NCBI GenBank assembly: GCA_016297965.1
Contig: JAEDDP010000001.1
Location: 75,347 to 139,346 of the forward strand
Direction of reading: 5' to 3'
From: Alphaproteobacteria bacterium
Lineage (GTDB): Bacteria; Pseudomonadota; Alphaproteobacteria; Rs-D84; CACZYB01
DNA length: 64,000 nucleotides
Position numbers and translations under genes: made by a program. Each line of letters starts with the position of its first letter. The first letter of the stretch is position 1. Below, piece by piece: positions 26,725 through 42,234 of the stretch. The notes below the pieces were generated by a model. It saw nothing but the letters and a program-made list of their open reading frames with translations, did no database searches and was not told the DNA's origin.

Positions 26725-28479
26725 ATGGCATTTGATAAAGCGTTTATAGAAAGTATAAGGGACAGAATTTCAATAGTTGATGTTATTTCACGATATGTTC
26801 CACTCACAAGAAAAGGTAAGGAAAATTGGGGATGTTGTCCGTTCCATACGGAAAAAACAGCTTCGTTTTCGGTAAGTGAGGATAAAAATTTTTATCATTG
26901 TTTTGGTTGTGGTGCGCATGGTGATGTAATAACTTTTATTATGCAAACGCAACATCTTTCTTTTATTGAAGCGATTGAAAAGCTTTGTCATGATGCGGGG
27001 ATTCCAATTCCTGTGGCGACGGAAGAACAGAAACGTCGGGATAAGGAATCACATGATCTTTATGAAGTATTGCAAATGGCGGCGGATTATTATAAGGAAA
27101 AACTTTTTTCGGATGAAGGAATGGTTGGACTTGAATATTTACGAAAACGTCAATTATCCGATGAAATGATTGCAAACTTTCATTTGTGTTATGCACCGGC
27201 GGGACGTGATAACCTTATTCAATATTTAAAGGGGAAGGGGGTTCCGTTAAAGCTTATCCTTGATGCTGGGCTTGCCCGTGTAAGTGATAGAACTCATACA
27301 CCGTATGATTATTTTCGTGAACGGGTTTTGTTCCCGATTACGGATTCACGGGGGCGAATTATTGCTTTTGGCGGACGTATTATGATAAAGGATGATAGTC
27401 TTCCAAAGTATCTAAATTCACCAGAATCATTAGTGTTTTCAAAGGGACGAAACTTGTATGGGCTTGCCCAAGCACGAATTGCCGCCATAGAAAGCAAGCA
27501 AGTTATTGCAACAGAAGGATATATGGATTGTATATCATTGCACCAGTTTGGTTTTAAAATGGCGGTGGCTCCTCTTGGTACGGCTATAACCGAAATGCAA
27601 ATAGAATTATTATGGAAATTAGCTCCGGAGCCAACACTTTGTTTTGATTCCGATGGTGCAGGAAGAAAGGCGGGGATAAGAGCTGCATTAAGGGTTCTTC
27701 CTATACTTAAACCTGGGTATTCGTTAAGGTTTTGTTTGCTTGAAGGAGCAAAGGATCCGGATGAATTTTTACATGCCTATGGTCATGAAAAATTTCAGGA
27801 AGTTCTTGATTCAAAATGTATTTCTTTGTCAGATATTTTGTGGATGTATTTTACCTCTGACAGAGATGTAAAAACTCCGGAACAACGGGCTGGATTGGAA
27901 GAAGATATAAAACGGGAACTTTCTCGGGTGAAAAGTGAAAGTATTCGCAAATTTTATTTGGATGAATTTAATCAGCGGATGAGGAGACAATATTCAAAAC
28001 TTGCCAGTGTGAAAAAAACTGTTATTCCAAAGGCAAATCCAGAAAATTTGAATGAAAAAATGATTTTGGCTTTTTCAATTGCCTATCCAAATTTGTTTGC
28101 AAAGTTTTTGGAAAGTGGTAAGAAAATAGAACTTTCACATCCGGTTTATAAGAAGATTTTTGATGAAGTTATACGGGAGGTTTCGGTTAATCCGCATACC
28201 AGAGAAACAATTTTACGGTACCTTAATGATAAGGGATTTAATCCACAGGTTCTTTTGAAATTTGAAATTGAATCTTTGGTTAAAAATCCGGAGGAAGCAT
28301 CAAAGCTTTTGGATGAAAAAGTTTTGCGGTTTGATTTGGAAAAATTGGAGACGGAATTTAAGGATTTGAATGTTCAACTTTTGACGGTTTCAGGAGATGA
28401 AGTTGAGAAGGTTCGTGAAAAAATTCAGGCTGTGAAATCGGAAATGCAAAATATAAAGGATAAGTTGGAGGAAGTTTAG
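26725..28479 (+). CDS. dnaG: DNA primase
   Basis: Zinc ribbon CCPFHTEKTASFSV...YHCFGCGAHGD, and a Toprim EGYMD region. Confidence 0.9.
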   Translation: MAFDKAFIESIRDRISIVDVISRYVPLTRKGKENWGCCPFHTEKTASFSVSEDKNFYHCFGCGAHGDVITFIMQTQHLSFIEAIEKLCHDAGIPIPVATEEQKRRDKESHDLYEVLQMAADYYKEKLFSDEGMVGLEYLRKRQLSDEMIANFHLCYAPAGRDNLIQYLKGKGVPLKLILDAGLARVSDRTHTPYDYFRERVLFPITDSRGRIIAFGGRIMIKDDSLPKYLNSPESLVFSKGRNLYGLAQARIAAIESKQVIATEGYMDCISLHQFGFKMAVAPLGTAITEMQIELLWKLAPEPTLCFDSDGAGRKAGIRAALRVLPILKPGYSLRFCLLEGAKDPDEFLHAYGHEKFQEVLDSKCISLSDILWMYFTSDRDVKTPEQRAGLEEDIKRELSRVKSESIRKFYLDEFNQRMRRQYSKLASVKKTVIPKANPENLNEKMILAFSIAYPNLFAKFLESGKKIELSHPVYKKIFDEVIREVSVNPHTRETILRYLNDKGFNPQVLLKFEIESLVKNPEEASKLLDEKVLRFDLEKLETEFKDLNVQLLTVSGDEVEKVREKIQAVKSEMQNIKDKLEEV

Positions 28480-28482
28480 GTT

Positions 28483-29124
28483 ATGATGGTGATGAAAAAG
28501 TCAGAATTTCTTGAAATGCTTTGTCTTTTTGATGAAAAGATTGGTCCGAAAAAATCTGAACTTAATTATAAAAATCCGTATACCTTTGCGGTGGCGGTGT
28601 TGCTTTCAGCACAGGCGACCGATAAGTCGGTGAATATTGCGACAAAGGATTTGTTTGAAGTTGCCGATAATCCACGGGCGATGGTTGAACTTGGGCTTTT
28701 GGAAGTTAAAAAGTACATCCGGACAATAGGACTTTTTAATGCAAAGGCAAAGCATATTATTGAAATGTCGGAAATGCTTATTTCTGATTTTAATGGCGAA
28801 CTTCCACGGACGCGTGAAGATTTGATGAAGCTTTCAGGGATTGGAAGAAAGTCGGCGAATGTTATTTTGAATGAACTTTATGGTGAACCAACCATTGGTG
28901 TGGATACGCATGTTCTTCGTCTTGTGAAACGGCTTGGGCTTATGGGGGATGAATTTAAGACACCGGAGGAGGTTGAAGCGGAACTTGACCGGATTATTCC
29001 GGAAAAATATAAACCATTTATTTCAAATTATTTGGTTTTGTTTGGACGGTATGTTTGTCGGGCGAAAAATCCAAAATGCGATGAATGTTATATGAAAAAA
29101 TTTTGTCAGTTGCTAAAAAAGTAA
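28483..29124 (+). CDS. nth: endonuclease III
   Basis: HhH-GPD LSGIGRKSANV..., and a C-terminal 4Fe-4S C-x6-C-x2-C-x5-C motif. Confidence 0.85.
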   Translation: MMVMKKSEFLEMLCLFDEKIGPKKSELNYKNPYTFAVAVLLSAQATDKSVNIATKDLFEVADNPRAMVELGLLEVKKYIRTIGLFNAKAKHIIEMSEMLISDFNGELPRTREDLMKLSGIGRKSANVILNELYGEPTIGVDTHVLRLVKRLGLMGDEFKTPEEVEAELDRIIPEKYKPFISNYLVLFGRYVCRAKNPKCDECYMKKFCQLLKK

Positions 29125-29207
29125 ATTTTTTTTCAAAATTTATAACTTTTTCTTGTAGTTTTTAAAGTTCTATTTTATATTTATGTGTAATTGTAAAAAA
29201 TCTTTAA

Positions 29208-30272
<1,065 letters not shown>

Positions 30273-30294
30273 TAAAAATATTATTATAAAATAA

Positions 30295-30327
30295 AATCCC
30301 CTTTGTGTTTCATTGGGGATTTTTTTG
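30295..30327. terminator. bidirectional terminator hairpin
   Basis: AATCCCC...GGGGATT followed by T7; overlaps the rsmA stop. Confidence 0.5.
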
Positions 30328-31179
30328 TATTTCAGTTGCGATGGATAAAAAGACTTCCGGTGAAAGCTCCTCCGCCCGTGATGTTTCCTTTATTTTAAGT
30401 TTTTCAAATGTCATTGCCATTTGTTCTGGCGTTGCAAACAGAGGTTTAAGTGTGGACCGAATCATTTTCCTTCGTTCGGAAAATACCTGTTTTACGACCT
30501 CTTCGGTTTTTAAAAGTAATTCTTTTTCTGGTTGGTTGCTGTTGGATATAAATTCAACAATGCATGATGTTATTTTTGGTGGTGGAGTGAAACAAGTCCG
30601 TGGAACCTTAAATAAAATTCGTGTTTTATTTGTTAATCCGGCCATTATGGATATTCTTCCGTAATCCTTTGTATGTGGATGTGCGGTTATTCGTTCGCCA
30701 ACTTCAAGTTGGTACATAAGTGTCATTGAGTTTATAATGTCGGCATTATAAAACCATTGTATGGTGAGTGGAATTGAAACATTGTATGGAAGATTTGCAC
30801 AAATACGGAAGTCGCAATTTGGGGCATAGGTTTCCTTTAATTCCCGAAAATTAATTTTAAGGGCGTCGCCTTCAATTATTTCAAGCCTGTCGCCATAGGT
30901 TTCCTTTAATTCATTCAAAATACCAATTGCACGTGTATCAAGTTCAATGGCAATAACCTTTTTGGCATTGTTTTTTAATAGGGCGCGTGTAAGTCCGGCC
31001 GGTCCGGAACCAACCTCTACCACAACGGAATTTTGAATATTGGGAACGGATTTTGCGATACGGTCAGTCAAATTTAGGTCAAGGATGAAGTTTTGACCCA
31101 ATGATTTTAGCGCCCTTAATTCATATTTGTTTATGAAATCGGAAACGGAAGGAAGGTTGTCATAATATTTTTCGGTCAT
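30310..31179 (-). CDS. rsmA: 16S rRNA (adenine1518/1519-N6)-dimethyltransferase
   Basis: LGQNFILD, VVEVGSGPAGLT and NLPYN motifs. Confidence 0.85.
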   Translation of the reverse strand: MTEKYYDNLPSVSDFINKYELRALKSLGQNFILDLNLTDRIAKSVPNIQNSVVVEVGSGPAGLTRALLKNNAKKVIAIELDTRAIGILNELKETYGDRLEIIEGDALKINFRELKETYAPNCDFRICANLPYNVSIPLTIQWFYNADIINSMTLMYQLEVGERITAHPHTKDYGRISIMAGLTNKTRILFKVPRTCFTPPPKITSCIVEFISNSNQPEKELLLKTEEVVKQVFSERRKMIRSTLKPLFATPEQMAMTFEKLKIKETSRAEELSPEVFLSIATEIQKNPQ

Positions 31180-31257
31180 AGTTGTAAATTTATTTTGTAT
31201 TATTTTCTTATTTATGTTATCATATCTTATGTATTTTTAATATAAAAGGAGAAAATT

Positions 31258-31782
31258 ATGAAATTTAAAAATGACTTGGGACGTTCAATGTTTGAAATGG
31301 TCCTTTACCTTGGTTTAATCGTTGTTATTACAACATCAACAATAAGCATGTATTCTGAATCCGTTGAAAAAACACGAAATATTCAGGCAGATAGCCAGAT
31401 TGAAGATATTCAGGAAAAGGTTAATTTGTACTATCTTGGCCGTCCATTCCCTTCTACCGGTCAAATTGAAACAGTTTTGCAAACAAAGCTTGGTAATCAA
31501 ATAAACCTTGTTGATCCATGGGGTTCAAAGATTACAGTTTATGCAAACAAGACCGGTGCCGGTACTGGACTTTTGGAGGATCCTTACTTTGGTATAAAGT
31601 TTTCAAATTTGGATAAGAAAAGATGTATAAATGTTTCAAATCTTTTCATTCAAAAGGGTGCCGTAACGGTTGAAGTTAATGAAACAAAGAAAAATACATC
31701 CTTTACAATCAGCGATGCCGCAAAAAGTTGTACAAAGGATGGTGCAACAAATACCGTTCAGGGATTCTTTAAAAAAGATTAA
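31258..31782 (+). CDS. small type-IV-pilin-like protein (class III signal-peptide-like N-terminus)
   Basis: MKFKNDLG|RSMFE: basic leader, Gly, Glu at +5, then a hydrophobic helix MVLYLGLIVVI. Its leader resembles the three large paralogs at 47.8-52.0 kb. Confidence 0.4.
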   Translation: MKFKNDLGRSMFEMVLYLGLIVVITTSTISMYSESVEKTRNIQADSQIEDIQEKVNLYYLGRPFPSTGQIETVLQTKLGNQINLVDPWGSKITVYANKTGAGTGLLEDPYFGIKFSNLDKKRCINVSNLFIQKGAVTVEVNETKKNTSFTISDAAKSCTKDGATNTVQGFFKKD

Positions 31783-31960
31783 ATATAAGAAAAAACTTGA
31801 TTTTTTTTGAAGGGTGGTGTATCTTTACATCACCTTTCTGTTTGATAGATTCTTTTTTATATGTAAGGAATTATTTTCAGACGGATGATTCAAAGGATTT
31901 TAACATAGGGTTAAAATTTAAAAATAACACCTTTGAAATGAACCCATAAGGAGTATAAAT

Positions 31961-32305
31961 ATGGCGTTTTACGAAACTGTTTTCGTTTTGAGACAAGATT
32001 TAACTTCACAACAAGTTGAAGATATTTCTAAGGATTTCAAAAAGATACTTTCTGATGGTAATGCAAAATTACTTAAAGAAGAAAACTGGGGACTTCGTTC
32101 TCTTGCTTATAAAATCAAAAAAAATAAAAAGGGACATTATGTTCTTTTGGAAACTGAGGCTTCTGCCGATGCAATTTCTGAATTTGAAAGAAAGTTGGGT
32201 TTAAGCGAAAATGTTTTAAGATTTATGACAATTAAGCTTGAAAAACCAAGTGAAGGTCCTTCACCAATACTTTCACAAAAAGATACAAGAGATGAAAGGA
32301 AATAA
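31961..32305 (+). CDS. rpsF: 30S ribosomal protein S6
   Basis: [14 protein letters not shown]... is typical of S6. Confidence 0.9.
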
Positions 32306-32310
32306 ATAAA

Positions 32311-32535
32311 ATGGCTATTCAAGAAAGAGTTATGAGAAAGAAAAATGATCCTTTAAAATCAGTTAATATTGATTATAAAGATGTAAAACTTCTTAGAAAA
32401 TTTATTTCTGAACGTGGTAAAATTGTTCCAAGAAGAATTTCTGGAACTTCTGCTAAAAATCAAAGACAATTGGCTAATGCAATTAAACGTGCAAGATATA
32501 TTGCTTTGTTGCCATACGTTGCAAATAATGATTAG
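32311..32535 (+). CDS. rpsR: 30S ribosomal protein S18
   Basis: The ...[28 protein letters not shown] region. Confidence 0.9.
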
Positions 32536-32544
32536 GAGATAAAA

Positions 32545-33153
32545 ATGGAAGTTATTTTATTAGAAAAAATTGGTAAACTTGGTCATCTTGGTGACAAGGT
32601 TAATGTAAAAGATGGTTATGCAAGAAATTTCCTTATCCCAACAGGTAAAGCATTAAGAGTAACAAAAGCAAATTTGGAAATGTTTGAAGCTCGTAAGGCT
32701 GAACTTGCAAAGGCAAGTGAGGAAGCAAAGAAAGTTGCATCTGTTCTTTCTTCTAAAATTAAGGGAAAATCTTTTGTTGTTATAAGACAAGCTGGTGATA
32801 CAGGTCATCTTTATGGTTCTGTTTCAACACGTGATTTGTCTGCTGTGTTAAAGGCTTCTGGTGCTGATGTTGATTATACAAAAATCACTATTGATACACC
32901 AATCAAAGAAATTGGTATTTACGAAGTGAAGGTTGCTTTGCACCCAGAAATCATTGACACAATAAAGGTTAATGTTGCAAGATCAGAAGAAGAAGCAAAG
33001 GTTGCCGAAGTTAATGCAGAAAAGGCACGTAAGCTTGCCGAAGAAAAAGCTCTTAAAGCAAAGGCCGAAGAAAAGGCTGCTAAGGAAGCAAAGGAAGCTG
33101 CTCTTCATGCTGAAAAGACAGAAGAAAAGAAGGAAGAAGAAGCAAATGCTTAA
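32545..33153 (+). CDS. rplI: 50S ribosomal protein L9 with a K/E/A-rich C-terminal extension
   Basis: MEVILLEKIGKLGHLGDKVNVKDGYARNFLIP; about 50 extra C-terminal residues rich in A, K and E. Confidence 0.9.
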   Translation: MEVILLEKIGKLGHLGDKVNVKDGYARNFLIPTGKALRVTKANLEMFEARKAELAKASEEAKKVASVLSSKIKGKSFVVIRQAGDTGHLYGSVSTRDLSAVLKASGADVDYTKITIDTPIKEIGIYEVKVALHPEIIDTIKVNVARSEEEAKVAEVNAEKARKLAEEKALKAKAEEKAAKEAKEAALHAEKTEEKKEEEANA

Positions 33154-33535
33154 TTTTCTTTTTATTCATCAAATTTCGCCCATTGGATTTTTCCGTGGGC
33201 GATTTTTTTGTGGTGTGGGTTTGGATGGTTTGTTTTTCTTTTGTTTGATGATTGGGATGAATGGTTGGGGAGTGGATGACAGACTGGTGAGTGTATGACA
33301 ACCGGAGGGACAGACGATGTCTTCCATTTAGGCTTTAATAGTGTGATACTTTACAGATGTTTTTACATTCCGACCACACCGATTTCTACCTTTGAAGCTT
33401 TCATGCCGACAATCCCTATACAAATTTTTTGTAAAGTGAGAATAAAATCATTTACTTATATTCAAAAAAGTGATACAATAGGGAAAGATTTAGACAGAGA
33501 AAGGAAAGAAAATGTCTAGACAAAATAGACGAATC

Positions 33536-33544
33536 GGGGGGGGG
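33536..33544 (+). repeat. G9 homopolymeric tract (candidate slipped-strand phase-variation switch)
   Basis: Nine consecutive G inside the 19-codon ORF 33512..33571, which carries an AAGGAAAG RBS; a -1 or +2 change fuses it to the downstream gene. Confidence 0.6.
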
Positions 33545-33596
33545 TACACCTGCTTGCATAGTTTCATTTAATCGTTGCAACCCATTGAAAAAGCTT

Positions 33597-34811
33597 ATGA
33601 AAGCTTCGTTGAATTTTCTTGTTTTATTTTCATTTATATTTTGTGATGTATCAAGTGTAGTCCTTGCCGGACGAGGAGGTAGAAGTGGTGGTGGAGCCAA
33701 GAAAAGAGCTAATCGTTCGTCAATGCGACCTTCTGTTCGTGTGTCAAACAGGGGCGGTTCGGTGTCGGCAAAGTCCGATGTAAATACAACTTCGTCAAAT
33801 GTTGCGGTTCAACCGCAGGCTGTGGCTCAACCTGTGGTACAGCCAAGCGTGGCGACGGCTCCGGTTGTTGTACAGGCACCTTCGGTTCAGGAGTCAAGTA
33901 CCAATTCCAATGTTAGCAAGCGTTCCGGTGAAAGCGAAAGAATTACAAAGGCCCGCGAAAATTTGGTGGCAAAAATTGATGACGTGAAAAATAAATGTAG
34001 CGGTATTGCCAGTGGGCTTAGATCCCTATATGGATTTACTGGTACCGCGATGGCTATGGGTGCTGTTACTACAATTGCATCTGGTACTTCTTTGGCGGTG
34101 CAAGTTGTAAGAGATAAAAAAGCGAAAAAGGAGGCAAATGTTGCACAGGGGGAAACTGCCGGTGGGACAACCACTGTCAGTGGAAGTACGGAAAATACAG
34201 AAAACGACAAAGGTAATACTAAGGACAATGGAGGTGGAGGAGATACCAATAGTAGTAAGAATAGAATAACGAATTTATCTACTGGCCCTGTACTCCTTTC
34301 GGGTGTGTCTACTGTGACATCGGCGGTGTCGGCGGTTAATTCCAATAAGGCGAAGAAAAGTGCGGCAAGTGTTGCCGGTGATATGTCGGATTGTAATTCT
34401 GCACTTAAAGCCCTTAAACTTGCGAAAAGTAAGTTTGAAATGATTCTTGATGAGGAAGAAGTGTACGATGATGACGCTCAACTTTCACGGGCTGGTACAG
34501 TGCTTTCCGCTTGTCAAAGTTATGATGATGGCAATATTGATACTGTTAAAAAGATGATGAATGTTTCAACCGGTGTTGCGGGTGTTGGTACAGCCGTAAG
34601 CTTGGTTGGTACAGCAACTGCAGTGGTTGGTGTTGCAAAATCAATCAAAGGGCAAGATGATAAAAAGTTGAATAAGATATCAAAGATTGCAACGGGTGCG
34701 ACGGCGGCGACTGGTGCTACGACCGGTGTGATAGGTGGTATTGCCCAAAGTAAGGCGAAAAAGGATTTTGATTCAGCACAACGGTGTGAGTCTGTCCTTC
34801 GGAATATTTAA
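33597..34811 (+). CDS. secreted Gly/Ala/Thr/Val-rich protein with three glycine-zipper-like hydrophobic segments; unknown function
   Basis: Signal peptide MKASLNFLVLFSFIF. Hydrophobic segments GTAMAMGAVTTIASGTSLAV, GVAGVGTAVSLVGTATAVVGVA and IATGATAATGATTGVIGGIA are each followed by K-rich stretches. Codon usage is GC-richer than the neighbours. Alternative TTG start at 33585. Confidence 0.5.
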   Translation: MKASLNFLVLFSFIFCDVSSVVLAGRGGRSGGGAKKRANRSSMRPSVRVSNRGGSVSAKSDVNTTSSNVAVQPQAVAQPVVQPSVATAPVVVQAPSVQESSTNSNVSKRSGESERITKARENLVAKIDDVKNKCSGIASGLRSLYGFTGTAMAMGAVTTIASGTSLAVQVVRDKKAKKEANVAQGETAGGTTTVSGSTENTENDKGNTKDNGGGGDTNSSKNRITNLSTGPVLLSGVSTVTSAVSAVNSNKAKKSAASVAGDMSDCNSALKALKLAKSKFEMILDEEEVYDDDAQLSRAGTVLSACQSYDDGNIDTVKKMMNVSTGVAGVGTAVSLVGTATAVVGVAKSIKGQDDKKLNKISKIATGATAATGATTGVIGGIAQSKAKKDFDSAQRCESVLRNI

Positions 34812-34997
34812 AACTTTTCTTCTTTTTTGATTGGATGGGAGTGGTTGTCGCCACTCCTTTTTATGGACTGGTTGTGGTTTGTGAGAGGTGTGAATGGTGA
34901 GTTTAAGGGTCCTGTTTTAGGAAATAGGCTTTGTGTGAATTGGAAACTGGTGTGGAGGTCAGAATGATTGGGGCGTTCTTATGGAAAGAGTGGTAGG

Positions 34998-35058
34998 TTG
35001 TGTGTCTGTCATCCTGAATCTATGATATGAGGAGTTGATTGTGTGTTCGTCATCCTGA
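34998..35058 (+). repeat. two copies of a 21-nt direct repeat TTGTGTGTYYGTCATCCTGAA
   Basis: Copies at 34998-35018 and 35038-35058, with 2 mismatches. The second copy runs into a perfect 8-bp hairpin ATCCTGAA-ctcg-TTCAGGAT at 35051-35070. Confidence 0.6.
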
Positions 35059-35382
35059 ACTCGTTTCAGGATCTTTTGTGAGAATCGTGAGGCAAAAAAA
35101 TTCCGAAATGAATCTGGAATGACACTATTTAATGTTTTGAAAAACTATCTTTTTCTTGATGATTTGGATTTTTTGCTTACTTCATTTTCATCGGAAACGG
35201 CCCAAACAAAGCTTATCACCCAAAAAAGGAACGTCCAACCCAAAAATAAATTAAGTACAAAAATTCCCGGAAAAATGTTTCTTTTAGTACGCAAAAATTG
35301 ATGGGAGAAAGTATACAATAAAAAGAATAATCAAAAATATAAATGCAAAAAGAACGTCTATTTATAAATCCATTTTGAAACT

Positions 35383-35459
35383 TGGTGGCGCCCCCCAGAC
35401 TCGAACTGGGGACCTGCGGATTATGATTCCGTCGCTCTAACCAACTGAGCTAGGGCGCC
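35383..35459 (-). tRNA. tRNA-Met (CAT), elongator type; tRNA-Ile2 (lysidine) not excluded
   Basis: Reverse complement GGCGCCCTAGCTCAGTTGGTTAGAGCG...ATCATAA...GGTTCGAGTC...GGGCGCCACCA. 7-bp acceptor with a 1:72 pair, anticodon CAT. Confidence 0.75.
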
Positions 35460-35810
35460 AAAGCTTGTTTTATGGTACTATATTCCGTTCATAAAGTCAA
35501 CAATTTTTGGAAAAAAGTTGAATGGAAGGAAGAAGCCTATTCAAAGACTAGGGAAAGGGGATAAATTTGGAGTTAGGTTAATGGTTATAAAAGTATGGAA
35601 TGTTTAAGCAAATTTTGTTTGGAAAAACTTTAAAATTCAAGTCTTATTTAGGACTAACGGCAGAACTAATAGGCGGACAAATAATAGAAAGTACAATAAT
35701 TAAAACACCGCAGGGAAGATTCTACCAAAGTGGGTTGAAAAAGCTATGTTTCTTTTTTCCTGTTTTTGAATATAGCAGTTGCAGTTTAAGAAAATATTCT
35801 GTAATATTAA

Positions 35811-36470
35811 GTGGTAAAAAATGAAAGGCAAAAAATGTCAAAAGGAATTATTTATATTTTTACAAATGATGCAATGCCGAATTTTATAAAAATTGGAATC
35901 ACAACAGATTTAGAAAGAAGGCTAAGAGAACTTGATACGACGGGAATACCGTTGCCTTTTCGTTGTCATTATGCAATAGAAATTGAAGATTATGATAAAA
36001 AGGAAAGATTTATACACGATGCTTTTGCAGATCACAGAATAAGGCAGAATAGGGAATTTTTCACTTTGGCTCCGGAAAGAGCTGTGTCTATGTTGAAAGC
36101 TATTGGAGGCAAGGAGGTTCAATTCGGAAATAATGAAATGATTGATGAAGAAGGTAATGTTGTTGATGATAATAAAACAGAAAAAAAATTGCGTTCTGCA
36201 TTTACATTTTCAGGAGCAAAAATTCCGGTAGGTTCTGAAATTTCCTTTACAAGGGATGAAAATAAAAAGGCAAAAGTTATTTCTGATAAAAAGGTTGAAT
36301 ATGAAGGAAAAGAGTATTCTTTGAGCCTTTTGGCACAAAGCTTGTTTGAACAAATAGGGTATCACTGGAAGTCTGTGCAAGGTCCGGCATATTTTAAATA
36401 TGATGGGGAAATTCTTTCTGATAGAAGGACTAGATTGGAAGAAGAAAATAGTGGAGATGATGCGGAGTAG
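35811..36470 (+). CDS. GIY-YIG-like T5orf172 (PF10544) domain protein with a DUF4357-like C-terminal region
   Basis: GIIYIFTN...IKIGITTDLERRLRELDTTGIPLPF...REFFTL matches T5orf172. Confidence 0.55.
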   Translation: MVKNERQKMSKGIIYIFTNDAMPNFIKIGITTDLERRLRELDTTGIPLPFRCHYAIEIEDYDKKERFIHDAFADHRIRQNREFFTLAPERAVSMLKAIGGKEVQFGNNEMIDEEGNVVDDNKTEKKLRSAFTFSGAKIPVGSEISFTRDENKKAKVISDKKVEYEGKEYSLSLLAQSLFEQIGYHWKSVQGPAYFKYDGEILSDRRTRLEEENSGDDAE

Positions 36471-36608
36471 GGGCTTTGATTGTCATCTGGAAATATGAAA
36501 AAGGAATGGGTTTAAAGAGGTGGATTTCGGTTTGAATTGTTTCTTGATTTTTATGCTATATTCCTTTATATTTACAGGTAGAAAAAACAGAATCGTTTGG
36601 AGTTTTAA

Positions 36609-38084
36609 GTGGATAGACAATCAAAAAATGTAAGTGGAGATTTCCTTCGTAAGCCACCGGCAAGTGTTGAAGCAGAACAGGCGGTGTTGTCGGCGATTAT
36701 TACAAATAATAAGGCATTGGAACGAGTTTCGGAATTTCTTCGTCCGGAACATTTTGTTGAGGTGATGCACCAGAAAATTTATGATGCCTGTCTTCGTTTG
36801 ATTGAAAAGGGGCATTTGGCGGATACCATTACATTGAAGAATTATTTGGAAAGTAATGGAACTTTGGATATGGCAGGCGGTGTTGAATATCTTTCCCAAC
36901 TTGCCAGCTCGTCAATTTCTATTGTAAATGCCTATGATTATGCAAAGCTTGTATATGAATGTGCCCTTAAAAGGAACCTTATTGAAATAGGTACAGATAT
37001 TGTGAATGATGCCTTTGGTGGGTCAAATGGCGATAGTGAGATTTCCGCCGCAAGTCAGATTGATAAGGCGGAAGGACAGCTTTATTCCCTTGCAACATTG
37101 GGGGAAACACAAAGTGGTCCGTCATCGTTGGAAATGACCCTTAGGAACTCTATGCAAACAATTGAGGAAGCTTATCGCGCCGATGGTTCAATTTCCGGAA
37201 TTTCAACGGGAATTAAGGATTTGGATAAAAGCCTTGGTGGATTTCATCCGTCCGATTTGTTGATTGTTGCTGGACGTCCAGGTATGGGAAAGACCGCGTT
37301 TGCTTTGAATCTTGCCGTAAATGTTGCAAATGAAGTGCTTAATCATCGTGGACCGGAAAAGTTGCAGGGGCCAGTTCTTTTTTGTTCCCTTGAAATGTCG
37401 GCGGATCAGCTTGCATCCCGTATTTTGTCATTTGAAGCGGAAGTTAATGGTAATAAAATCCGAAATGGAAGTATAAATGAGGAGGAATTTAACAGACTTG
37501 TTGAATTTCAGCGCGCACTTAAAGATCTTCCAATATTTATTGATGATACGCCGGATATTACCGTTCCGATGATAAGGGCGAGGGCAAGACGTTTGAAACG
37601 GCAGTCCGGTGCGCTTTCCCTTATTGTGATAGACTATGTTCAGTTGTTGAATTCACCGGGTGGAAGAAAGTCCGATAACCGAGTTCAGGAAATTTCGGAA
37701 ATAACCAGAGGGCTTAAAATCCTTGCAAAGGAATTGGATGTGCCGGTTATTGCCTTGTCCCAGTTGTCGCGACTTGTTGAACAACGTGATGATAAGCGAC
37801 CACAGCTTGCCGATCTTCGTGAATCCGGATCTATTGAGCAGGATGCTGACTGTGTTATGTTTGTATATCGTGAGTCGTATTACCATAACAAGACCCGTCC
37901 GATTGATGCGGATGTGACAAGTCAGGAATATATTGCATGGCAGAAAAAGGCGGAACGAATTGAAAATATGGCGGAAATTTTGATTGCAAAGCAACGTCAT
38001 GGTCCAACGGGGGATGTAAAAGTTTCCTTTGTTGGGGAATATTTCAAGTTTGGTGATTTTTATGATGGAAAAATAGAAGGATAA
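36609..38084 (+). CDS. dnaB: replicative DNA helicase DnaB
   Basis: Walker A GRPGMGKTAFALN, Walker B LIVIDYVQLL, N-terminal SVEAEQAVLSAII. GTG start. Confidence 0.9.
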   Translation: MDRQSKNVSGDFLRKPPASVEAEQAVLSAIITNNKALERVSEFLRPEHFVEVMHQKIYDACLRLIEKGHLADTITLKNYLESNGTLDMAGGVEYLSQLASSSISIVNAYDYAKLVYECALKRNLIEIGTDIVNDAFGGSNGDSEISAASQIDKAEGQLYSLATLGETQSGPSSLEMTLRNSMQTIEEAYRADGSISGISTGIKDLDKSLGGFHPSDLLIVAGRPGMGKTAFALNLAVNVANEVLNHRGPEKLQGPVLFCSLEMSADQLASRILSFEAEVNGNKIRNGSINEEEFNRLVEFQRALKDLPIFIDDTPDITVPMIRARARRLKRQSGALSLIVIDYVQLLNSPGGRKSDNRVQEISEITRGLKILAKELDVPVIALSQLSRLVEQRDDKRPQLADLRESGSIEQDADCVMFVYRESYYHNKTRPIDADVTSQEYIAWQKKAERIENMAEILIAKQRHGPTGDVKVSFVGEYFKFGDFYDGKIEG

Positions 38085-38090
38085 TTTATT

Positions 38091-38900
38091 ATGCAAAAAT
38101 TTGTGATTGCTTCGGCGAATGAAAATAAAATAAAAGAATTTCAGGAAATGTTGAAACCTTTTTCTGTAAGGGTGGTTCCATATAAAACCCTTATCAAAGA
38201 CGAAAACTTTGAAATAGAGGAAACAGGAAAAACATTTGAAGAAAATGCAAAGTTGAAGGCGGAAACTATCTGTGAAAAAACGGGTCTTCCTACATTTGCA
38301 GATGACAGTGGTTTTTGTGTGAAAAGTTTGAATGATTTTCCGGGACTTTATTCGGCACGATTTGCCAATGAAGTTGGTGGTTATGATAAGGCATTTGAGG
38401 AAATAAAGAACAGATTGAATGGAAAGTGTAGTGAGGCGCAATTCGTTTGTGTTATTGCATTTGCCAGAAAGGGTGAAAAGACCTTGACCTTTAAGGGGAT
38501 TTGCAATGGGTTTACGGTATTTCCTCCACGTGGTGAAAATGGTTTTGGGTATGATTCAATTTTTGTTCCAAATTCGTATGGACTTACATTTGCGGAAATG
38601 ACAGATGAGGAAAAAAATTCAATAAGTCATAGGTTTGTTGCAACATCAAAATTCCTTAAATTTATGGAAGAATTGAAAAAAGAACAGGAAAGTAAAAAGA
38701 GTGTAAAGGAAGATAGCCCAGTTAAAAAAGTTGCAAAAAGGGTTGTAAAGGAAAAGGTTCAGGTTGTGGAAGATGTCATTATTGCCAAATCGGATACACA
38801 GCCAGAAATTGTTTCTGATGATGTTTTTCAGGTTGAAGTTGATGAAAAGTTTGATGCTCCGGAAGTGCCTTTTTCAAGTGTAGATGATGCAAAAAATTAG
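38091..38900 (+). CDS. rdgB: dITP/XTP pyrophosphatase (Ham1/RdgB) with about 70-aa K/E-rich C-terminal extension
   Basis: N-terminus FVIASANENKIKEF, FADDSGFCV, SHRF; the C-terminal extension is not found in canonical RdgB. Confidence 0.8.
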   Translation: MQKFVIASANENKIKEFQEMLKPFSVRVVPYKTLIKDENFEIEETGKTFEENAKLKAETICEKTGLPTFADDSGFCVKSLNDFPGLYSARFANEVGGYDKAFEEIKNRLNGKCSEAQFVCVIAFARKGEKTLTFKGICNGFTVFPPRGENGFGYDSIFVPNSYGLTFAEMTDEEKNSISHRFVATSKFLKFMEELKKEQESKKSVKEDSPVKKVAKRVVKEKVQVVEDVIIAKSDTQPEIVSDDVFQVEVDEKFDAPEVPFSSVDDAKN

Positions 38901-40020
38901 TATTTATTTACATTTTCCATTTTGTTTGAAAAAATGCAATTATTGCGATTTTGTAAGCTATCCTTGTTTAGGTGATGTTGCCGATTTGTCGGATTATTAT
39001 ATTCGGGAATTGGAGCTTTATTCAAAATTTGTTGGGCGTCGGCTGGTTTCAAGTATTTATTTTGGTGGTGGGACGCCTTCGCTTATGTCCCCAGAGATAA
39101 TTGAAAAAATTATAGAAAAAATTTATTCAAATTTTGATGTGGCAGGTGATGTTGAAATAACATTGGAAGTTAATCCAAAGACTGTGAATGAAGCAAAGTT
39201 AAGGGGCTTTTTTACCGCTGGGGTTAACAGGTTATCCATTGGAATACAATCGTTTGATGATGATGAATTAAGTTTTTTGGGACGGGTGCATTCGGCGGAT
39301 GATGCGTATAATTGTTTGAATATGGCAAGAAAATATTTTGATAATATAAGTTGTGATTTTATTTATGCTCTTCCCAATCAAATGTTTGAAAAATGGTGTG
39401 CGAATCTTGAAAAAATAAAGACTTTGGATGTGAAACATTTATCACTTTATGAATTGATAATTGAACCAAAAACGCCGTTATTTAATATGGTGAAAAGTGG
39501 TAAAATTTTGCCAGTTAATGAAAGATTGGCGGGAAAAATGTTTGAATATACAAACAAAACTTTGCGACATATTTTTCCACAATATGAAATTTCAAATTAT
39601 GGAAAGGTTGGTTTTGAAAGCAGGCATAACCTTAATTATTGGAATGGTGGTGATTATTTGGGTATTGGTGTTAGTGCCAGTGGTCGTATTTGTTTGGATG
39701 GAAAATTTTTTATAACGGAAAATCCAGTTTCGGTTGATGGGTGGAAAAAAAATATTGATTTGGGAGCTTTGGCTGTTCGTCCACTTTCACGGAAAAAGCG
39801 GGCAGAGGAATTTTTAATAATGGGACTTAGGAAAAATAAGGGAATTGATTTTGGTGAATTTAAACAAAATTCCCATTGTGATTTTTTTGATGTTGTGAAT
39901 GAAGATAAGGTTAATATTTTGGTGGGGCAAAAATACCTTTTACTTTCAAAGCGTGGGATAAGGACTTCGGTTCGTGGAAGAAGTGTGTTGGATGCAATTT
40001 TAAGGGAAATTGTTAAATAA
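38884..40020 (+). CDS. hemW: radical-SAM heme chaperone HemW (HemN-like)
   Basis: LHFPFCLKKCNYCDF CxxxCxxC motif; 17-nt overlap with rdgB, a conserved pair. Confidence 0.85.
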   Translation: MMQKISIYLHFPFCLKKCNYCDFVSYPCLGDVADLSDYYIRELELYSKFVGRRLVSSIYFGGGTPSLMSPEIIEKIIEKIYSNFDVAGDVEITLEVNPKTVNEAKLRGFFTAGVNRLSIGIQSFDDDELSFLGRVHSADDAYNCLNMARKYFDNISCDFIYALPNQMFEKWCANLEKIKTLDVKHLSLYELIIEPKTPLFNMVKSGKILPVNERLAGKMFEYTNKTLRHIFPQYEISNYGKVGFESRHNLNYWNGGDYLGIGVSASGRICLDGKFFITENPVSVDGWKKNIDLGALAVRPLSRKKRAEEFLIMGLRKNKGIDFGEFKQNSHCDFFDVVNEDKVNILVGQKYLLLSKRGIRTSVRGRSVLDAILREIVK

Positions 40021-40042
40021 ATATTGCAAAAATAAGTTTATG

Positions 40043-40067
40043 GCCTTCAAAAGAAGGCTTTTTTAAT
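40043..40067 (+). terminator. intrinsic terminator after hemW
   Basis: GCCTTC-aaaa-GAAGGC followed by T6. Confidence 0.5.
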
Positions 40068-40135
40068 TCTTCCTTGCTTTATATTATAAAATTTTATATG
40101 ATGATTTATCATAATTTAATAGAGGATATATTGAT

Positions 40136-41821
40136 ATGACAAAAGAAAAAGTTCTTATTACTTCGGCACTTCCATACGTGAATGGTCTTCCACATTTGGG
40201 ACATTTGGTTGGTTGTTTGTTGCCAAGTGATATTTATGCAAGGTTTAACCGTTTGATGGGAAATGAAGTACTTTATATCGGAGGTACAGATGAACATGGT
40301 ACACCATCCGAACTTGGTGCAAAAAAGGAAGGTGTGGATGTTTATGACTATACAACAAAATATCACAATATTCACAAGGATATTTATGAAAAATTTAATC
40401 TTTCATTTGATTATTTCGGACGTACTTCGTCAAAGGAAAATACAGAAATAACCCAAGAAATTGCACGTGAACTTTTTAAAAATGGTTATATAGAAGAACG
40501 TGAAGTGGAGCAAGTTTTTTCCGTGGATGATAATATGTTTTTGCCCGATAGGTATATTGTTGGAACTTGTCCTTACTGTGGTGCGACAAATGCAAGGGGC
40601 GATCAATGTGAAAGTTGTACAAAGGTGTTGGACCCAAAGGATTTGATTGATGCACGGTCCGCAGTTAGTGGAAGTACAAATTTGGAGGTACGAAAGACAA
40701 AGCATCTTTACCTTAAACTTTCAAAATTAAGTGATAAGGTTCGTAGTTGGGTTAATACAAGAAAGTGGAACAAGCTTACATTGGGGATTGCCAATAAATG
40801 GCTTGATGAAGGGTTAAGCGACAGGTGTATTACCCGTGATTTAAAGTGGGGAATTCCCGTTCCAACAGATGTTTTTCCGGATATGAAGGACAAGGTCTTT
40901 TATGTTTGGTTTGATGCACCGATTGGCTATATTTCCATTACAAAAGAATTGCTTGGGGATGGATATAAAAATTGGTGGCTTAATTCGTGTGGTGCGGATA
41001 AGGTTCGGTATGTTGAATTTATGGGAAAGGATAATGTTCCGTTCCATTCCGTTATGTTTCCGGCAACCCTTATTGGTGCGAATGAAGACTATAAAAAAGT
41101 TGATACATTAAAGGGATTAAGTTATTTGAACTTTAATGGTGGAAAGTTTTCAAAGTCGGCACACAGGGGAATTTTTGCTGATTCCGCGATTGAGGAATTT
41201 CCGGCCGATTATTGGAGATATTGGCTTATTAAAAATGCTCCGGAAACGGATGATACCGATTTTTCATTTGAACGATTTGCAGAGGAAATTAACAAGGATT
41301 TGAATGATGTCCTTGGCAATTTCATTCTTCGTGTATTAAAGTTTTATAATTCAAAATTTGGTAATGTGTTGCTTCATAATCCGGCAAATACAGAAAAGGA
41401 GCAGGCAGTTATTGCCGAACTTCAAGAACGGGTTAATGCATACACTCAATATTTAAACGATATGGAGTTCAGAAAGGCAATGGCGGAGCTTCGTGCAATT
41501 TGGGTTTTGGGTAATACCTATATTGATGAAATGGCGCCATGGAGTGTATTTAAAACCGACAGCGAAAAGTCCGGTGAAATACTTGCCTTTGCAATGAATT
41601 TAATGCGGATTTATATGGTGTTGGCAAAACCAATTATGCCAAATGTTTCGGAAAAGATTTTGGGCACACTTGGTACCTCTGGGGATTGGATTTTTGATGT
41701 GAAGGAAGAGATGAATGCAATTTCAAAGGGACATAAATTTGAAGTTCCGGAAACTGTGTTTTCAAAAATTTCATCCGACAGAGTTAATGAATTGAATGAA
41801 AAATATAATGCGAAAAAATAA
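40136..41821 (+). CDS. metG: methionyl-tRNA synthetase (short form without the C-terminal tRNA-binding domain)
   Basis: HLGHLVG (HIGH), KFSKS (KMSKS), zinc knuckle CPYCG...CESC. Confidence 0.9.
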   Translation: MTKEKVLITSALPYVNGLPHLGHLVGCLLPSDIYARFNRLMGNEVLYIGGTDEHGTPSELGAKKEGVDVYDYTTKYHNIHKDIYEKFNLSFDYFGRTSSKENTEITQEIARELFKNGYIEEREVEQVFSVDDNMFLPDRYIVGTCPYCGATNARGDQCESCTKVLDPKDLIDARSAVSGSTNLEVRKTKHLYLKLSKLSDKVRSWVNTRKWNKLTLGIANKWLDEGLSDRCITRDLKWGIPVPTDVFPDMKDKVFYVWFDAPIGYISITKELLGDGYKNWWLNSCGADKVRYVEFMGKDNVPFHSVMFPATLIGANEDYKKVDTLKGLSYLNFNGGKFSKSAHRGIFADSAIEEFPADYWRYWLIKNAPETDDTDFSFERFAEEINKDLNDVLGNFILRVLKFYNSKFGNVLLHNPANTEKEQAVIAELQERVNAYTQYLNDMEFRKAMAELRAIWVLGNTYIDEMAPWSVFKTDSEKSGEILAFAMNLMRIYMVLAKPIMPNVSEKILGTLGTSGDWIFDVKEEMNAISKGHKFEVPETVFSKISSDRVNELNEKYNAKK

Positions 41822-42234
41822 TGAATAGTAAGGAAAAGGAGCTTTTGGAAATAAAAAATAAGGGCATTGATAAGATGTCCGAGGATTTTATTGAAAAACC
41901 AATTGCTCCGAAATCCGAAAGGTTCCTTTATGGTCCGAATGAAATTGGAAACTCCCTTATGAATGTGATAAAGGGGTTTGGAAAGAAGTATGGATTCATA
42001 AATTCGGATATTATTGCGAATTGGACGGAAATTGCCGGTGTGCAACTTTCTAAAAGTATTGTTCCGGTGAAACTTTCGTTTCCGTATGGTGAACGGTCCA
42101 ATGGAACACTTTATGTAAAAATTAAAAATGCATCGTTGTCGGCAATAGTTCAATACCAATTTCCAACCATTATTGACAGGGTTAATACATATTTTGGATA
42201 CAATGCCGTTTCAAATGTTAAAATAAAGTATTAG
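41821..42234 (+). CDS. DUF721/DciA-like protein
   Basis: 137 aa, resembles the COG5389/DUF721 family common in alphaproteobacteria. Its ATG at 41821 shares the A of the metG TAA stop. Confidence 0.35.
   Translation: MNSKEKELLEIKNKGIDKMSEDFIEKPIAPKSERFLYGPNEIGNSLMNVIKGFGKKYGFINSDIIANWTEIAGVQLSKSIVPVKLSFPYGERSNGTLYVKIKNASLSAIVQYQFPTIIDRVNTYFGYNAVSNVKIKY

Follow-up and report, generated by a model that had tools for sequence, protein, structure and literature searches.

The interval studied here, positions 33154-36608 (~3.4 kb), separates rplI from dnaB in a 64,000-nucleotide (nt) stretch of DNA, hereafter the window, whose host is an uncultured gut or rumen alphaproteobacterium of 35% GC. The original prediction took this interval for a degraded integrative element splitting a conserved gene cluster, and placed the end of rplI at 33153 and the start of dnaB at 36609. 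Both boundaries are confirmed by Pfam domains, with the N- and C-terminal domains of ribosomal protein L9 encoded by rplI and the DnaB and DnaB_C domains by dnaB (36609-38084, GTG start); both genes are on the plus strand. Between them lie GA408, a gene for a secreted protein (33585-34811, plus strand), a 78-nt palindromic repeat resembling a miniature inverted-repeat transposable element (MITE; 35048-35126, plus strand), a pseudogene of the Imm_superinfect type (35145-35361, minus strand), a tRNA gene with the anticodon CAT (35383-35459, minus strand, by Rfam) and an intact T5orf172 / PDC-S57 gene that ends at 36470 (plus strand). This set of genes and repeats is probably the backbone, shared throughout the species, of a strain-variable hot spot that the window carries in a nearly empty state; a hot-spot backbone is itself a known, ordinary kind of locus.

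The evidence for this comes from conspecific strains, represented by ~20 metagenome contigs that were chosen for a DnaB or L9 protein identical to that of the window and whose flanks are 95-99% identical in nucleotide sequence. The interval is common to these contigs at 87-98% nucleotide identity, with a shared backbone of rplI, GA408, the 78-nt repeat, the immunity relic, tRNA-Met, T5orf172 and dnaB. This backbone was kept in every contig reaching the interval; presence or absence of the whole unit was not seen, and only sub-parts vary. The strains show at least five arrangements of the rplI-dnaB interval at 95-98% flank identity, with extra genes of 1.3 to >7 kb at defined points, and all of these insertion slots are empty in the window.

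The slots are spread across the interval. Slot C (33255-33268) receives inserts of 0.15-0.9 kb that are built from 78-nt repeat copies and in some strains also contain a 95-aa PF01541 GIY-YIG gene: in strains L121, L124 and L127 the insert is ~0.8-0.9 kb and the GIY-YIG gene sits between the repeat copies (L121:10799-11611), while in L126 and L128 it measures ~150 nt. In L130 the 95-aa gene and the repeat copies likewise precede the secreted-protein gene. An insert of 1.5 kb is present at ~35124-35153 in L123. Slot A coincides with the 3' end of the tRNA gene (35373-35388), where L121/L130 and L126/L128 carry inserts of 2.2-2.3 kb flanked by TTTTGAAACTTGGTGG / TTTTGATTTTTGGTGG, a 16-nt imperfect repeat. 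In L127 (L127:14262-16653) the 3' part of the tRNA is present as a 46-nt copy, followed by a 2.2-kb HATPase_c_3 gene and then by a full tRNA-Met gene in inverted orientation, which suggests an inversion between tRNA-derived repeats. The view of the original prediction that the tRNA gene could serve as an integration target is thus borne out by conspecific inserts exactly at its 3' end, flanked by the 16-nt imperfect or the 46-nt repeat. For the conserved spacer 35460-35716 there are two more breakpoints, ~35508 and 35706-35753, both empty in the window. At ~35508, L121 and L123 diverge into cargo with AriA and PD-T4-1 genes. Slot B (35706-35753), just upstream of T5orf172, holds +1.3 kb in L126, +5.2 kb in L125 and at least 7 kb in L122 and L124.

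The cargo includes recognised defence genes, all of them in the slots of other strains; the window itself has only the candidate PDC-S57. A full-length PARIS-like AriA (E = 3e-53), an AriA/OLD-TOPRIM fusion and a PD-T4-1-like HNH protein (E = 3e-17) are encoded at L123:18258-20608 and L121:19260-20609. Immediately upstream of T5orf172, strains L122, L124 and L125 carry operons of 8-10 genes (L122:13692-20609, L124:14475-20609 and L125:14060-19237) with first proteins of ~124, 120 and 515-603 aa. These operons gave no Pfam, PHROG or PADLOC match, and those of L122 and L124 run into DUF4258 and Imm40 genes of the toxin/immunity type. Furthermore, parts of the backbone have separate histories: an in-frame deletion of the GA408 linker, point decay of the immunity gene and, in other strains, a 687-bp deletion in T5orf172. 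A look-up of DciA brought up no strains but those of the same type. In L001, a Lambda_Bor-family gene is present between hemN and metG (L001:12872-13162) and is absent from the corresponding window position (40021-40135) and from the other strains; it is another small presence/absence polymorphism.

The T5orf172 gene runs on the plus strand from an ATG at 35835 or a GTG at 35811 to 36470 and encodes an intact protein of 211 or 219 aa. Its assignment as a GIY-YIG/T5orf172 gene in the original prediction was correct, as the protein matches PF10544 at 63.3 bits, far above the cut-off of 20. It also matches the PADLOC model PDC-S57 (PDLC05041) at E = 2.2e-70, with residues 2-204 aligned to profile positions 4-209 of 212. 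We found 124 full-length homologues; across 44 homologues Y7, K19, G21, R73 and E74 never vary, and conservation of R29 is at least 90%. AlphaFold2 predicts a two-domain protein (mean predicted local distance difference test, pLDDT, 85). The N-terminal domain (residues 1-98) has a GIY-YIG-superfamily nuclease-type fold with Foldseek matches to Slx1 and UPF0213, and a Foldseek search against viral proteins returned 48 T5orf172 proteins at E<=1e-3. The C-terminal domain (~125-205) looks DNA-binding from its predicted structure, which by Foldseek resembles the CcrM C-terminal domain (modelled in the CcrM-DNA complex) and the DNA-bound MPND domain. Phage homing endonucleases and domesticated nucleases, e.g. 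ICP1 Gp88, contain T5orf172 as a domain of the GIY-YIG superfamily (PMC8263062), and PDC systems are candidates defined by their embedding in BREX, DISARM or type I restriction-modification (R-M) loci (bioRxiv 10.1101/2024.01.29.577857). The protein is thus a candidate defence nuclease, PDC-S57, with putative protective activity. A literature search found no paper naming PDC-S57.

Among conspecifics this gene occurs in two states. In the closest strains, namely L001-L006, which have the gene order of the window, and L129, a 687-bp segment (35643-36329 in the window) is missing, and 35642 is joined to 36330 with ~1 nt of microhomology. The loss covers the sequence upstream of T5orf172 and the first 165 codons of the gene (173 from the GTG at 35811), and the last 46 codons are kept. 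This difference is a deletion in those strains and not an insertion in the window, because the 124 homologues align over their full length. L125 and L126 have an intact T5orf172 directly ahead of dnaB, with their cargo upstream of the gene.

Outside the species, homologues of 60-80% identity are found at unrelated sites: between rlmH and gpmI, beside type I R-M genes (L090 and L092) and directly after a tRNA gene, beginning ~20 nt past its 3' end (L092 and L093). The nucleotide homology to the window copy is 75-80% and ends at the ends of the open reading frame (ORF; L087:6001-6636, L090:6001-6630, L092:6001-6636), and the gene, at ~35% GC, lies within flanks of 52-54% GC (L087, rlmH-gpmI) or 25-28% GC (L090). 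These alignments show horizontal transfer of T5orf172 as a unit the size of the gene, with hosts ranging from 25 to 54% GC. Together with the PDC-S57 match, this agrees with the expectation of the original prediction that T5orf172 genes are mobile or defence cargo. In phage and plasmid collections, relatives of the protein were found only at <40% identity (full-length <=34%), and no transfer vehicle was seen.

Gene-sized movement raises the question of whether T5orf172 is a defence gene at all or a free-standing, homing-endonuclease-like selfish gene that persists and spreads by cutting DNA lacking it. The sharp ends of homology, the GC contrast with the flanks and the unrelated intergenic insertion sites would all fit such a gene, as would a domain typical of phage homing endonucleases. 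However, close relatives do not show a clean empty site: the absence allele is the 687-bp deletion, which keeps the 3' end of the gene. In addition, the family was picked up through its embedding in defence loci, and no recognition site is known. We regard the selfish-gene explanation as possible but rather unlikely.

Between GA408 and the tRNA gene the original prediction had recorded a direct repeat pair, and two 39-nt copies, 77% identical over 39 nt, are indeed present on the plus strand at 34980-35018 and 35021-35059. Each copy combines flanking sequence with GTCATCCTGAA, the left end of the 78-nt unit, and GTCATCCTGAA occurs at 35008 and 35049; the 39-nt pair is this left end plus a duplicated fragment. 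The 78-nt repeat itself has the inverted ends GTCATCC...GGAATGAC and folds end to end (z ~ -2 on either strand). Other strains have 1-4 additional copies in reverse orientation upstream of GA408, and reverse copies also precede the paralogue P0124 described below. The repeat is present in 1-5 copies per locus and in both orientations. A short noncoding unit with inverted ends and a copy number that varies among strains is of the MITE/REP (repetitive extragenic palindromic) type. At the repeat insertion there is a 13-nt overlap at 33255-33267, which is partly similarity between repeat end and target, and no transposase was seen.

Next to the repeat, an Imm_superinfect-type gene for a small membrane protein (35145-35361, minus strand) starts 21 nt past the tRNA 3' end. 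A 57-aa ORF within it (35145-35318, minus strand) matches PF14373 at 37 bits (cut-off 27.9) and phrog_1039, 'immunity to superinfection'. The window copy has no intact ORF as a result of an ATG>ATA change, a GAA>TAA change and a frameshift. An intact 72-aa version (MDVIFAFIFLIILFIVYFLPSIFAYEKKHFPGIF...) was found only in L123 and L125, where it also starts 21 nt after the tRNA, and most other strains have different lesions in the gene. The immunity relic and the MITE-like repeat are the one part of the interval that resembles a remnant of old cargo, on the 3' side of the tRNA. The pseudogene and the 78-nt palindromic repeat, like the terminators after rplI and GA408 described below, were not part of the original prediction.

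The tRNA gene lies on the opposite strand (35383-35459, minus), as the original prediction stated, and is preceded by a promoter-like site at 35500-35472 (minus strand). By its sequence it is not of the initiator type, because of its G1:C72 pair, and would be either an elongator tRNA-Met or a lysidine-modified tRNA-Ile2. It was the only hit of an Rfam scan of 31000-38500 at E<=1 that we retain; matches to AniS (E = 0.07) and PrrB/RsmZ (E = 0.9) fell far under the gathering scores and are due to chance.

Under the original prediction, the whole of 33154-36608 would have arrived at tRNA-Met as a single integrative element whose integrase and att sites were later lost. The tRNA gene inside the interval, whose 3' end is used for insertions in conspecifics, the phage-type immunity pseudogene and MITE-like repeat just downstream of it, and T5orf172 as typical island cargo are all features of such an element. 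As predicted, no recombinase or integrase domain was found in any interval ORF scanned, where only T5orf172 and Imm_superinfect matched. However, two of the signatures proposed as checks were missing. A k-mer search found no tRNA-derived repeat of >=10 nt within 32900-36700, where an att repeat had been expected, and the best BLAST matches were chance 9-10-mers elsewhere in the window. Composition was native as judged by GC content at third codon positions (GC3): the z-scores are +1.2 for GA408, +1.0 for the Imm fragment, -0.85 for T5orf172 (GC3 = 0.236) and +1.4 for dnaB, so that the interval genes (-0.85 to +1.2) show no deviation from the host of the kind expected for an element. Moreover, no strain lacks the backbone, its components vary independently, GA408 has a paralogue elsewhere in the species, and T5orf172 is situated 5' of the tRNA, on the opposite side from the one that tRNA-targeting islands occupy (3'). 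The single-element explanation is therefore largely refuted and very unlikely. What stands of the original prediction is that mobile and defence DNA accumulates at this locus; what does not stand is that it forms one element.

GA408 also argues against arrival with an element. The gene (plus strand) encodes 408 aa from a TTG start or 404 aa from an ATG at 33597 and, at 44.8% GC, is the GC-richest gene of the window; the original prediction of a GC-richer gene for a secreted protein is hence confirmed. Its GC3 of 0.337 is in the native range, with 0.52 and 0.49 at the first and second codon positions, and the high overall GC follows from its amino-acid content (Ser 12.7, Ala 11.8, Val 11.3 and Gly 9.8%). 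The protein consists of a signal-peptide-like N-terminus, a low-complexity spacer and a conserved C-terminal module of ~290 aa, in which four Gly/Ala/Ser/Thr/Val-rich hydrophobic segments alternate with amphipathic helices. At E<=1e-3 there are 98 homologous cluster representatives, in all of which the match falls at the C-terminal end, with signal peptides and variable spacers; three cysteines are invariant in the family and a fourth is conserved in at least 90%. AlphaFold2 gave a mean pLDDT of 53, with confident helices only at ~110-140, 255-320 and 385-404, the amphipathic parts. None of 21 family members scanned matched a Pfam family, and searches of the PDB with the GA408 sequence profile and with its fold (Foldseek) returned no significant match. 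The window has a short-linker allele; in other strains an in-frame linker of 130-190 aa, composed of (SG)n, (SGDS)n and (NPPKQQ)n, is present at ~34240-34250.

GA408 was found in one species only, and there in every contig covering the gene. The same species has a paralogue, P0124 (545 aa, 46% identical), directly after rplU-rpmA (L094:7518-9638) with two copies of the 78-nt repeat upstream, and in the sister species the orthologue of P0124 lies 2.7 kb downstream of rplI. In the species of the window, one paralogue thus follows rplI and the other rplU-rpmA. GA408 is a native, lineage-specific and probably independently transcribed gene of an undescribed family. The members would be secreted helical proteins, with disulfide bonds and glycine-zipper-like segments, that could be membrane-active, and GA408 may act at the surface or the membrane.

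Promoter-like sites and terminators divide the interval into separate units, in that rplI, GA408, the tRNA gene and dnaB each have a promoter-like site and/or a terminator of their own. The rpsF-rpsR-rplI operon ends at an intrinsic terminator at 33176-33209 (plus strand), a hairpin UCGCCCA...UGGGCGA followed by U7 that folds at -21.8 kcal/mol (z = -3.4; none of 200 shuffles folded equally well). The following intergenic region (33154-33584, plus strand) contains a G+T-rich block (33154-33330), the empty slot C and a promoter-like site ahead of GA408 (33451-33479, plus strand). GA408 has its own intrinsic terminator at 34837-34863 (plus strand), a 9-bp stem with five G-C pairs and a T-run, and the same hairpin was recovered in the fold. 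A promoter-like site before dnaB (36544-36572, plus strand) is kept in the T5orf172 deletion alleles.

The two G+T-skewed noncoding blocks of the original prediction are real (33136-33330, G+T 0.68; 34783-34989, 0.71-0.73; window mean 0.556), and stretches of similar degree also occur inside genes elsewhere in the window, so the skew is not unique. GC skew was above zero in every interval profiled across window positions 28000-42000 (0.02-0.51, mostly ~0.1-0.4), where genes are mostly on the plus strand, consistent with a leading strand, and the G+T richness of the blocks is partly due to this leading-strand-like skew. The blocks might also have been arrays of repeat ends; this was unsupported, since the 78-nt repeat's end sequence, GGATGAC, shows no enrichment (5 occurrences in the window against 4.2 expected, three of the five within the two blocks).

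The premise that rplI and dnaB are adjacent in most bacteria proved weak for this group. In a survey of 67 alphaproteobacterial loci for which 5 kb or more of DNA ahead of dnaB was available, rplI was found upstream on the same strand in 43, with a gap of <0.7 kb in 20 and of 1.5-5.2 kb in 23, and was missing from the other 24; adjacency is therefore not the rule in Alphaproteobacteria. In sister species with DnaB 76-88% identical, dnaB-rdgB-hemN is kept, a VTT/DedA-type gene and unknown genes lie upstream, and no rplI was present within the 4.7-8 kb of upstream DNA. On the rplI side, dnaG-nth-mreB-rsmA-pilS-rpsF-rpsR-rplI is preserved in contigs whose L9 is 77-87% identical (in L099/L100, the most distant pair, only rsmA-rplI), and rplI is followed there by mltG or an HTH gene. 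The synteny comparison proposed in the original prediction thus found shared gene content, with no case of the whole interval being absent, in conspecifics, and no link between rplI and dnaB in sister species. Within the genus, synteny also breaks at this interval. That it is a mere breakpoint filled with ordinary lineage-specific genes and of no mobile-element significance would suit its native composition, the gaps of 1.5-5.2 kb common in Alphaproteobacteria and the sister arrangement of rplI-mltG with unrelated genes ahead of dnaB, but is contradicted by the conspecific comparisons, in which insertions at fixed points carry defence genes, T5orf172 is horizontally transferred and MITE-like copy number varies between strains, and is hardly probable.

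Two side observations concern the upstream genes. L9 of the window has a C-terminal tail of ~50 aa, rich in Lys, Glu and Ala and encoded by imperfect internal repeats (window 32990-33150); L9 of relatives is comparably long, at 195-207 aa against the typical ~150 aa. Between rsmA and rpsF lies a gene for 174 aa with a weak PilS (type IV pilin-like) match (window 31258-31782), whose position is conserved in the sister species.

Taken together, these comparisons favour a strain-variable hot spot with a fixed backbone. The ribosomal-protein operon would stop at its own terminator and be followed by the independently transcribed GA408 in its short-linker allele, then by the MITE-like repeat, the decayed superinfection-immunity-type gene and the opposite-strand tRNA(CAT), and finally by the intact single-gene nuclease T5orf172 / PDC-S57 directly before the dnaB promoter. 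The tRNA 3' end and short imperfect repeats may act as recombination targets for small islands without an integrase of their own. T5orf172 would be a DNA-cutting protein, in which the GIY-YIG-type domain cleaves and the C-terminal domain binds DNA, serving either phage defence or selfish persistence, and the immunity-like pseudogene and the repeat would be leftovers of earlier cargo.

Several points weigh against the hot-spot interpretation. No integrase that would bring in the cargo was found within the fetched DNA of any strain (10-kb views); the far ends of the L122, L124 and L127 islands lie beyond the fetched DNA. All comparisons are with metagenome contigs, in which a few junctions could be assembly artefacts, although several recur in independent samples. 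An immunity pseudogene by a tRNA 3' end is also the expected leftover of a very old, eroded element, and 35048-35382 may have such a remnant origin. Finally, the defence role of PDC-S57 is that of a candidate.

No publication on a hot spot between rplI and dnaB came up in a literature search. As this locus shows, what looks like an insertion into a conserved cluster can be a strain-variable hot spot at rest, and only conspecific comparison reveals this. It also offers a compact, defined site in an uncultured gut alphaproteobacterium for cataloguing defence cargo (PARIS-like, PD-T4-1, PDC-S57 and operons without known relatives), a natural pair of intact and deleted alleles of the candidate PDC-S57, and one unannotated secreted-protein family of ~100 sequence clusters. 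Only the GA408 family and the gene-sized mobility of PDC-S57 go slightly beyond the routine, and current concepts are unchanged. A bolder combination of these observations would be that PDC-S57-type T5orf172 genes are autonomous, gene-sized mobile nuclease genes that insert without a recombinase next to tRNA or housekeeping genes of distant gut bacteria (host GC 25-54%), with their cutting possibly promoting cargo turnover immediately upstream in the hot spot; a membrane-active GA408 family would be its second element. We consider this combination speculative and improbable.

The components of the interval can be compared with several known systems. GA408 is like the alpha-pore-forming toxins ClyA, Hbl, MakA and AhlB in being all-helical and secreted, with hydrophobic Gly/Ala-rich segments between amphipathic helices; it differs in its four conserved cysteines and low-complexity spacer, and a ClyA-type assignment is not supported, the matches being at chance level (Foldseek E >= 0.98; YaxA E = 0.17). 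The immunity relic belongs with the Imm_superinfect (PF14373) proteins by a match above the curated cut-off and by the intact two-helix 72-aa forms of two conspecific strains, whereas the window copy is a pseudogene. The T5orf172 protein shares with PDC-S57 / PF10544 the full-length profile match, the conserved Tyr/Arg/Glu core and homologues beside type I R-M genes; unlike in the defining loci, the window copy stands alone between a tRNA gene and dnaB, with no defence system around it. With the T5orf172 nucleases of ICP1 and PLE (Odn/Gp88, CapR) it has in common a T5orf172 nuclease domain and a separate DNA-recognition domain. However, no sequence relation is detectable outside the nuclease domain, which is C-terminal in Gp88 and N-terminal in the window protein, and the latter is bacterial and chromosomal whereas Odn/Gp88 and CapR belong to a phage or satellite. 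The locus as a whole resembles tRNA-adjacent genomic or defence-island hot spots in its conserved core flanks (the rpsF operon and dnaB-rdgB-hemN) with variable content between them, in the insertions at the tRNA 3' end with short direct repeats, and in cargo with AriA of PARIS and PD-T4-1. It departs from typical hot spots of this kind in that no integrase occurs in the fetched DNA of any strain, the slots of the window are empty, 2.5 kb of DNA contain at least four separate slots, and a native secreted-protein gene is part of the interval.

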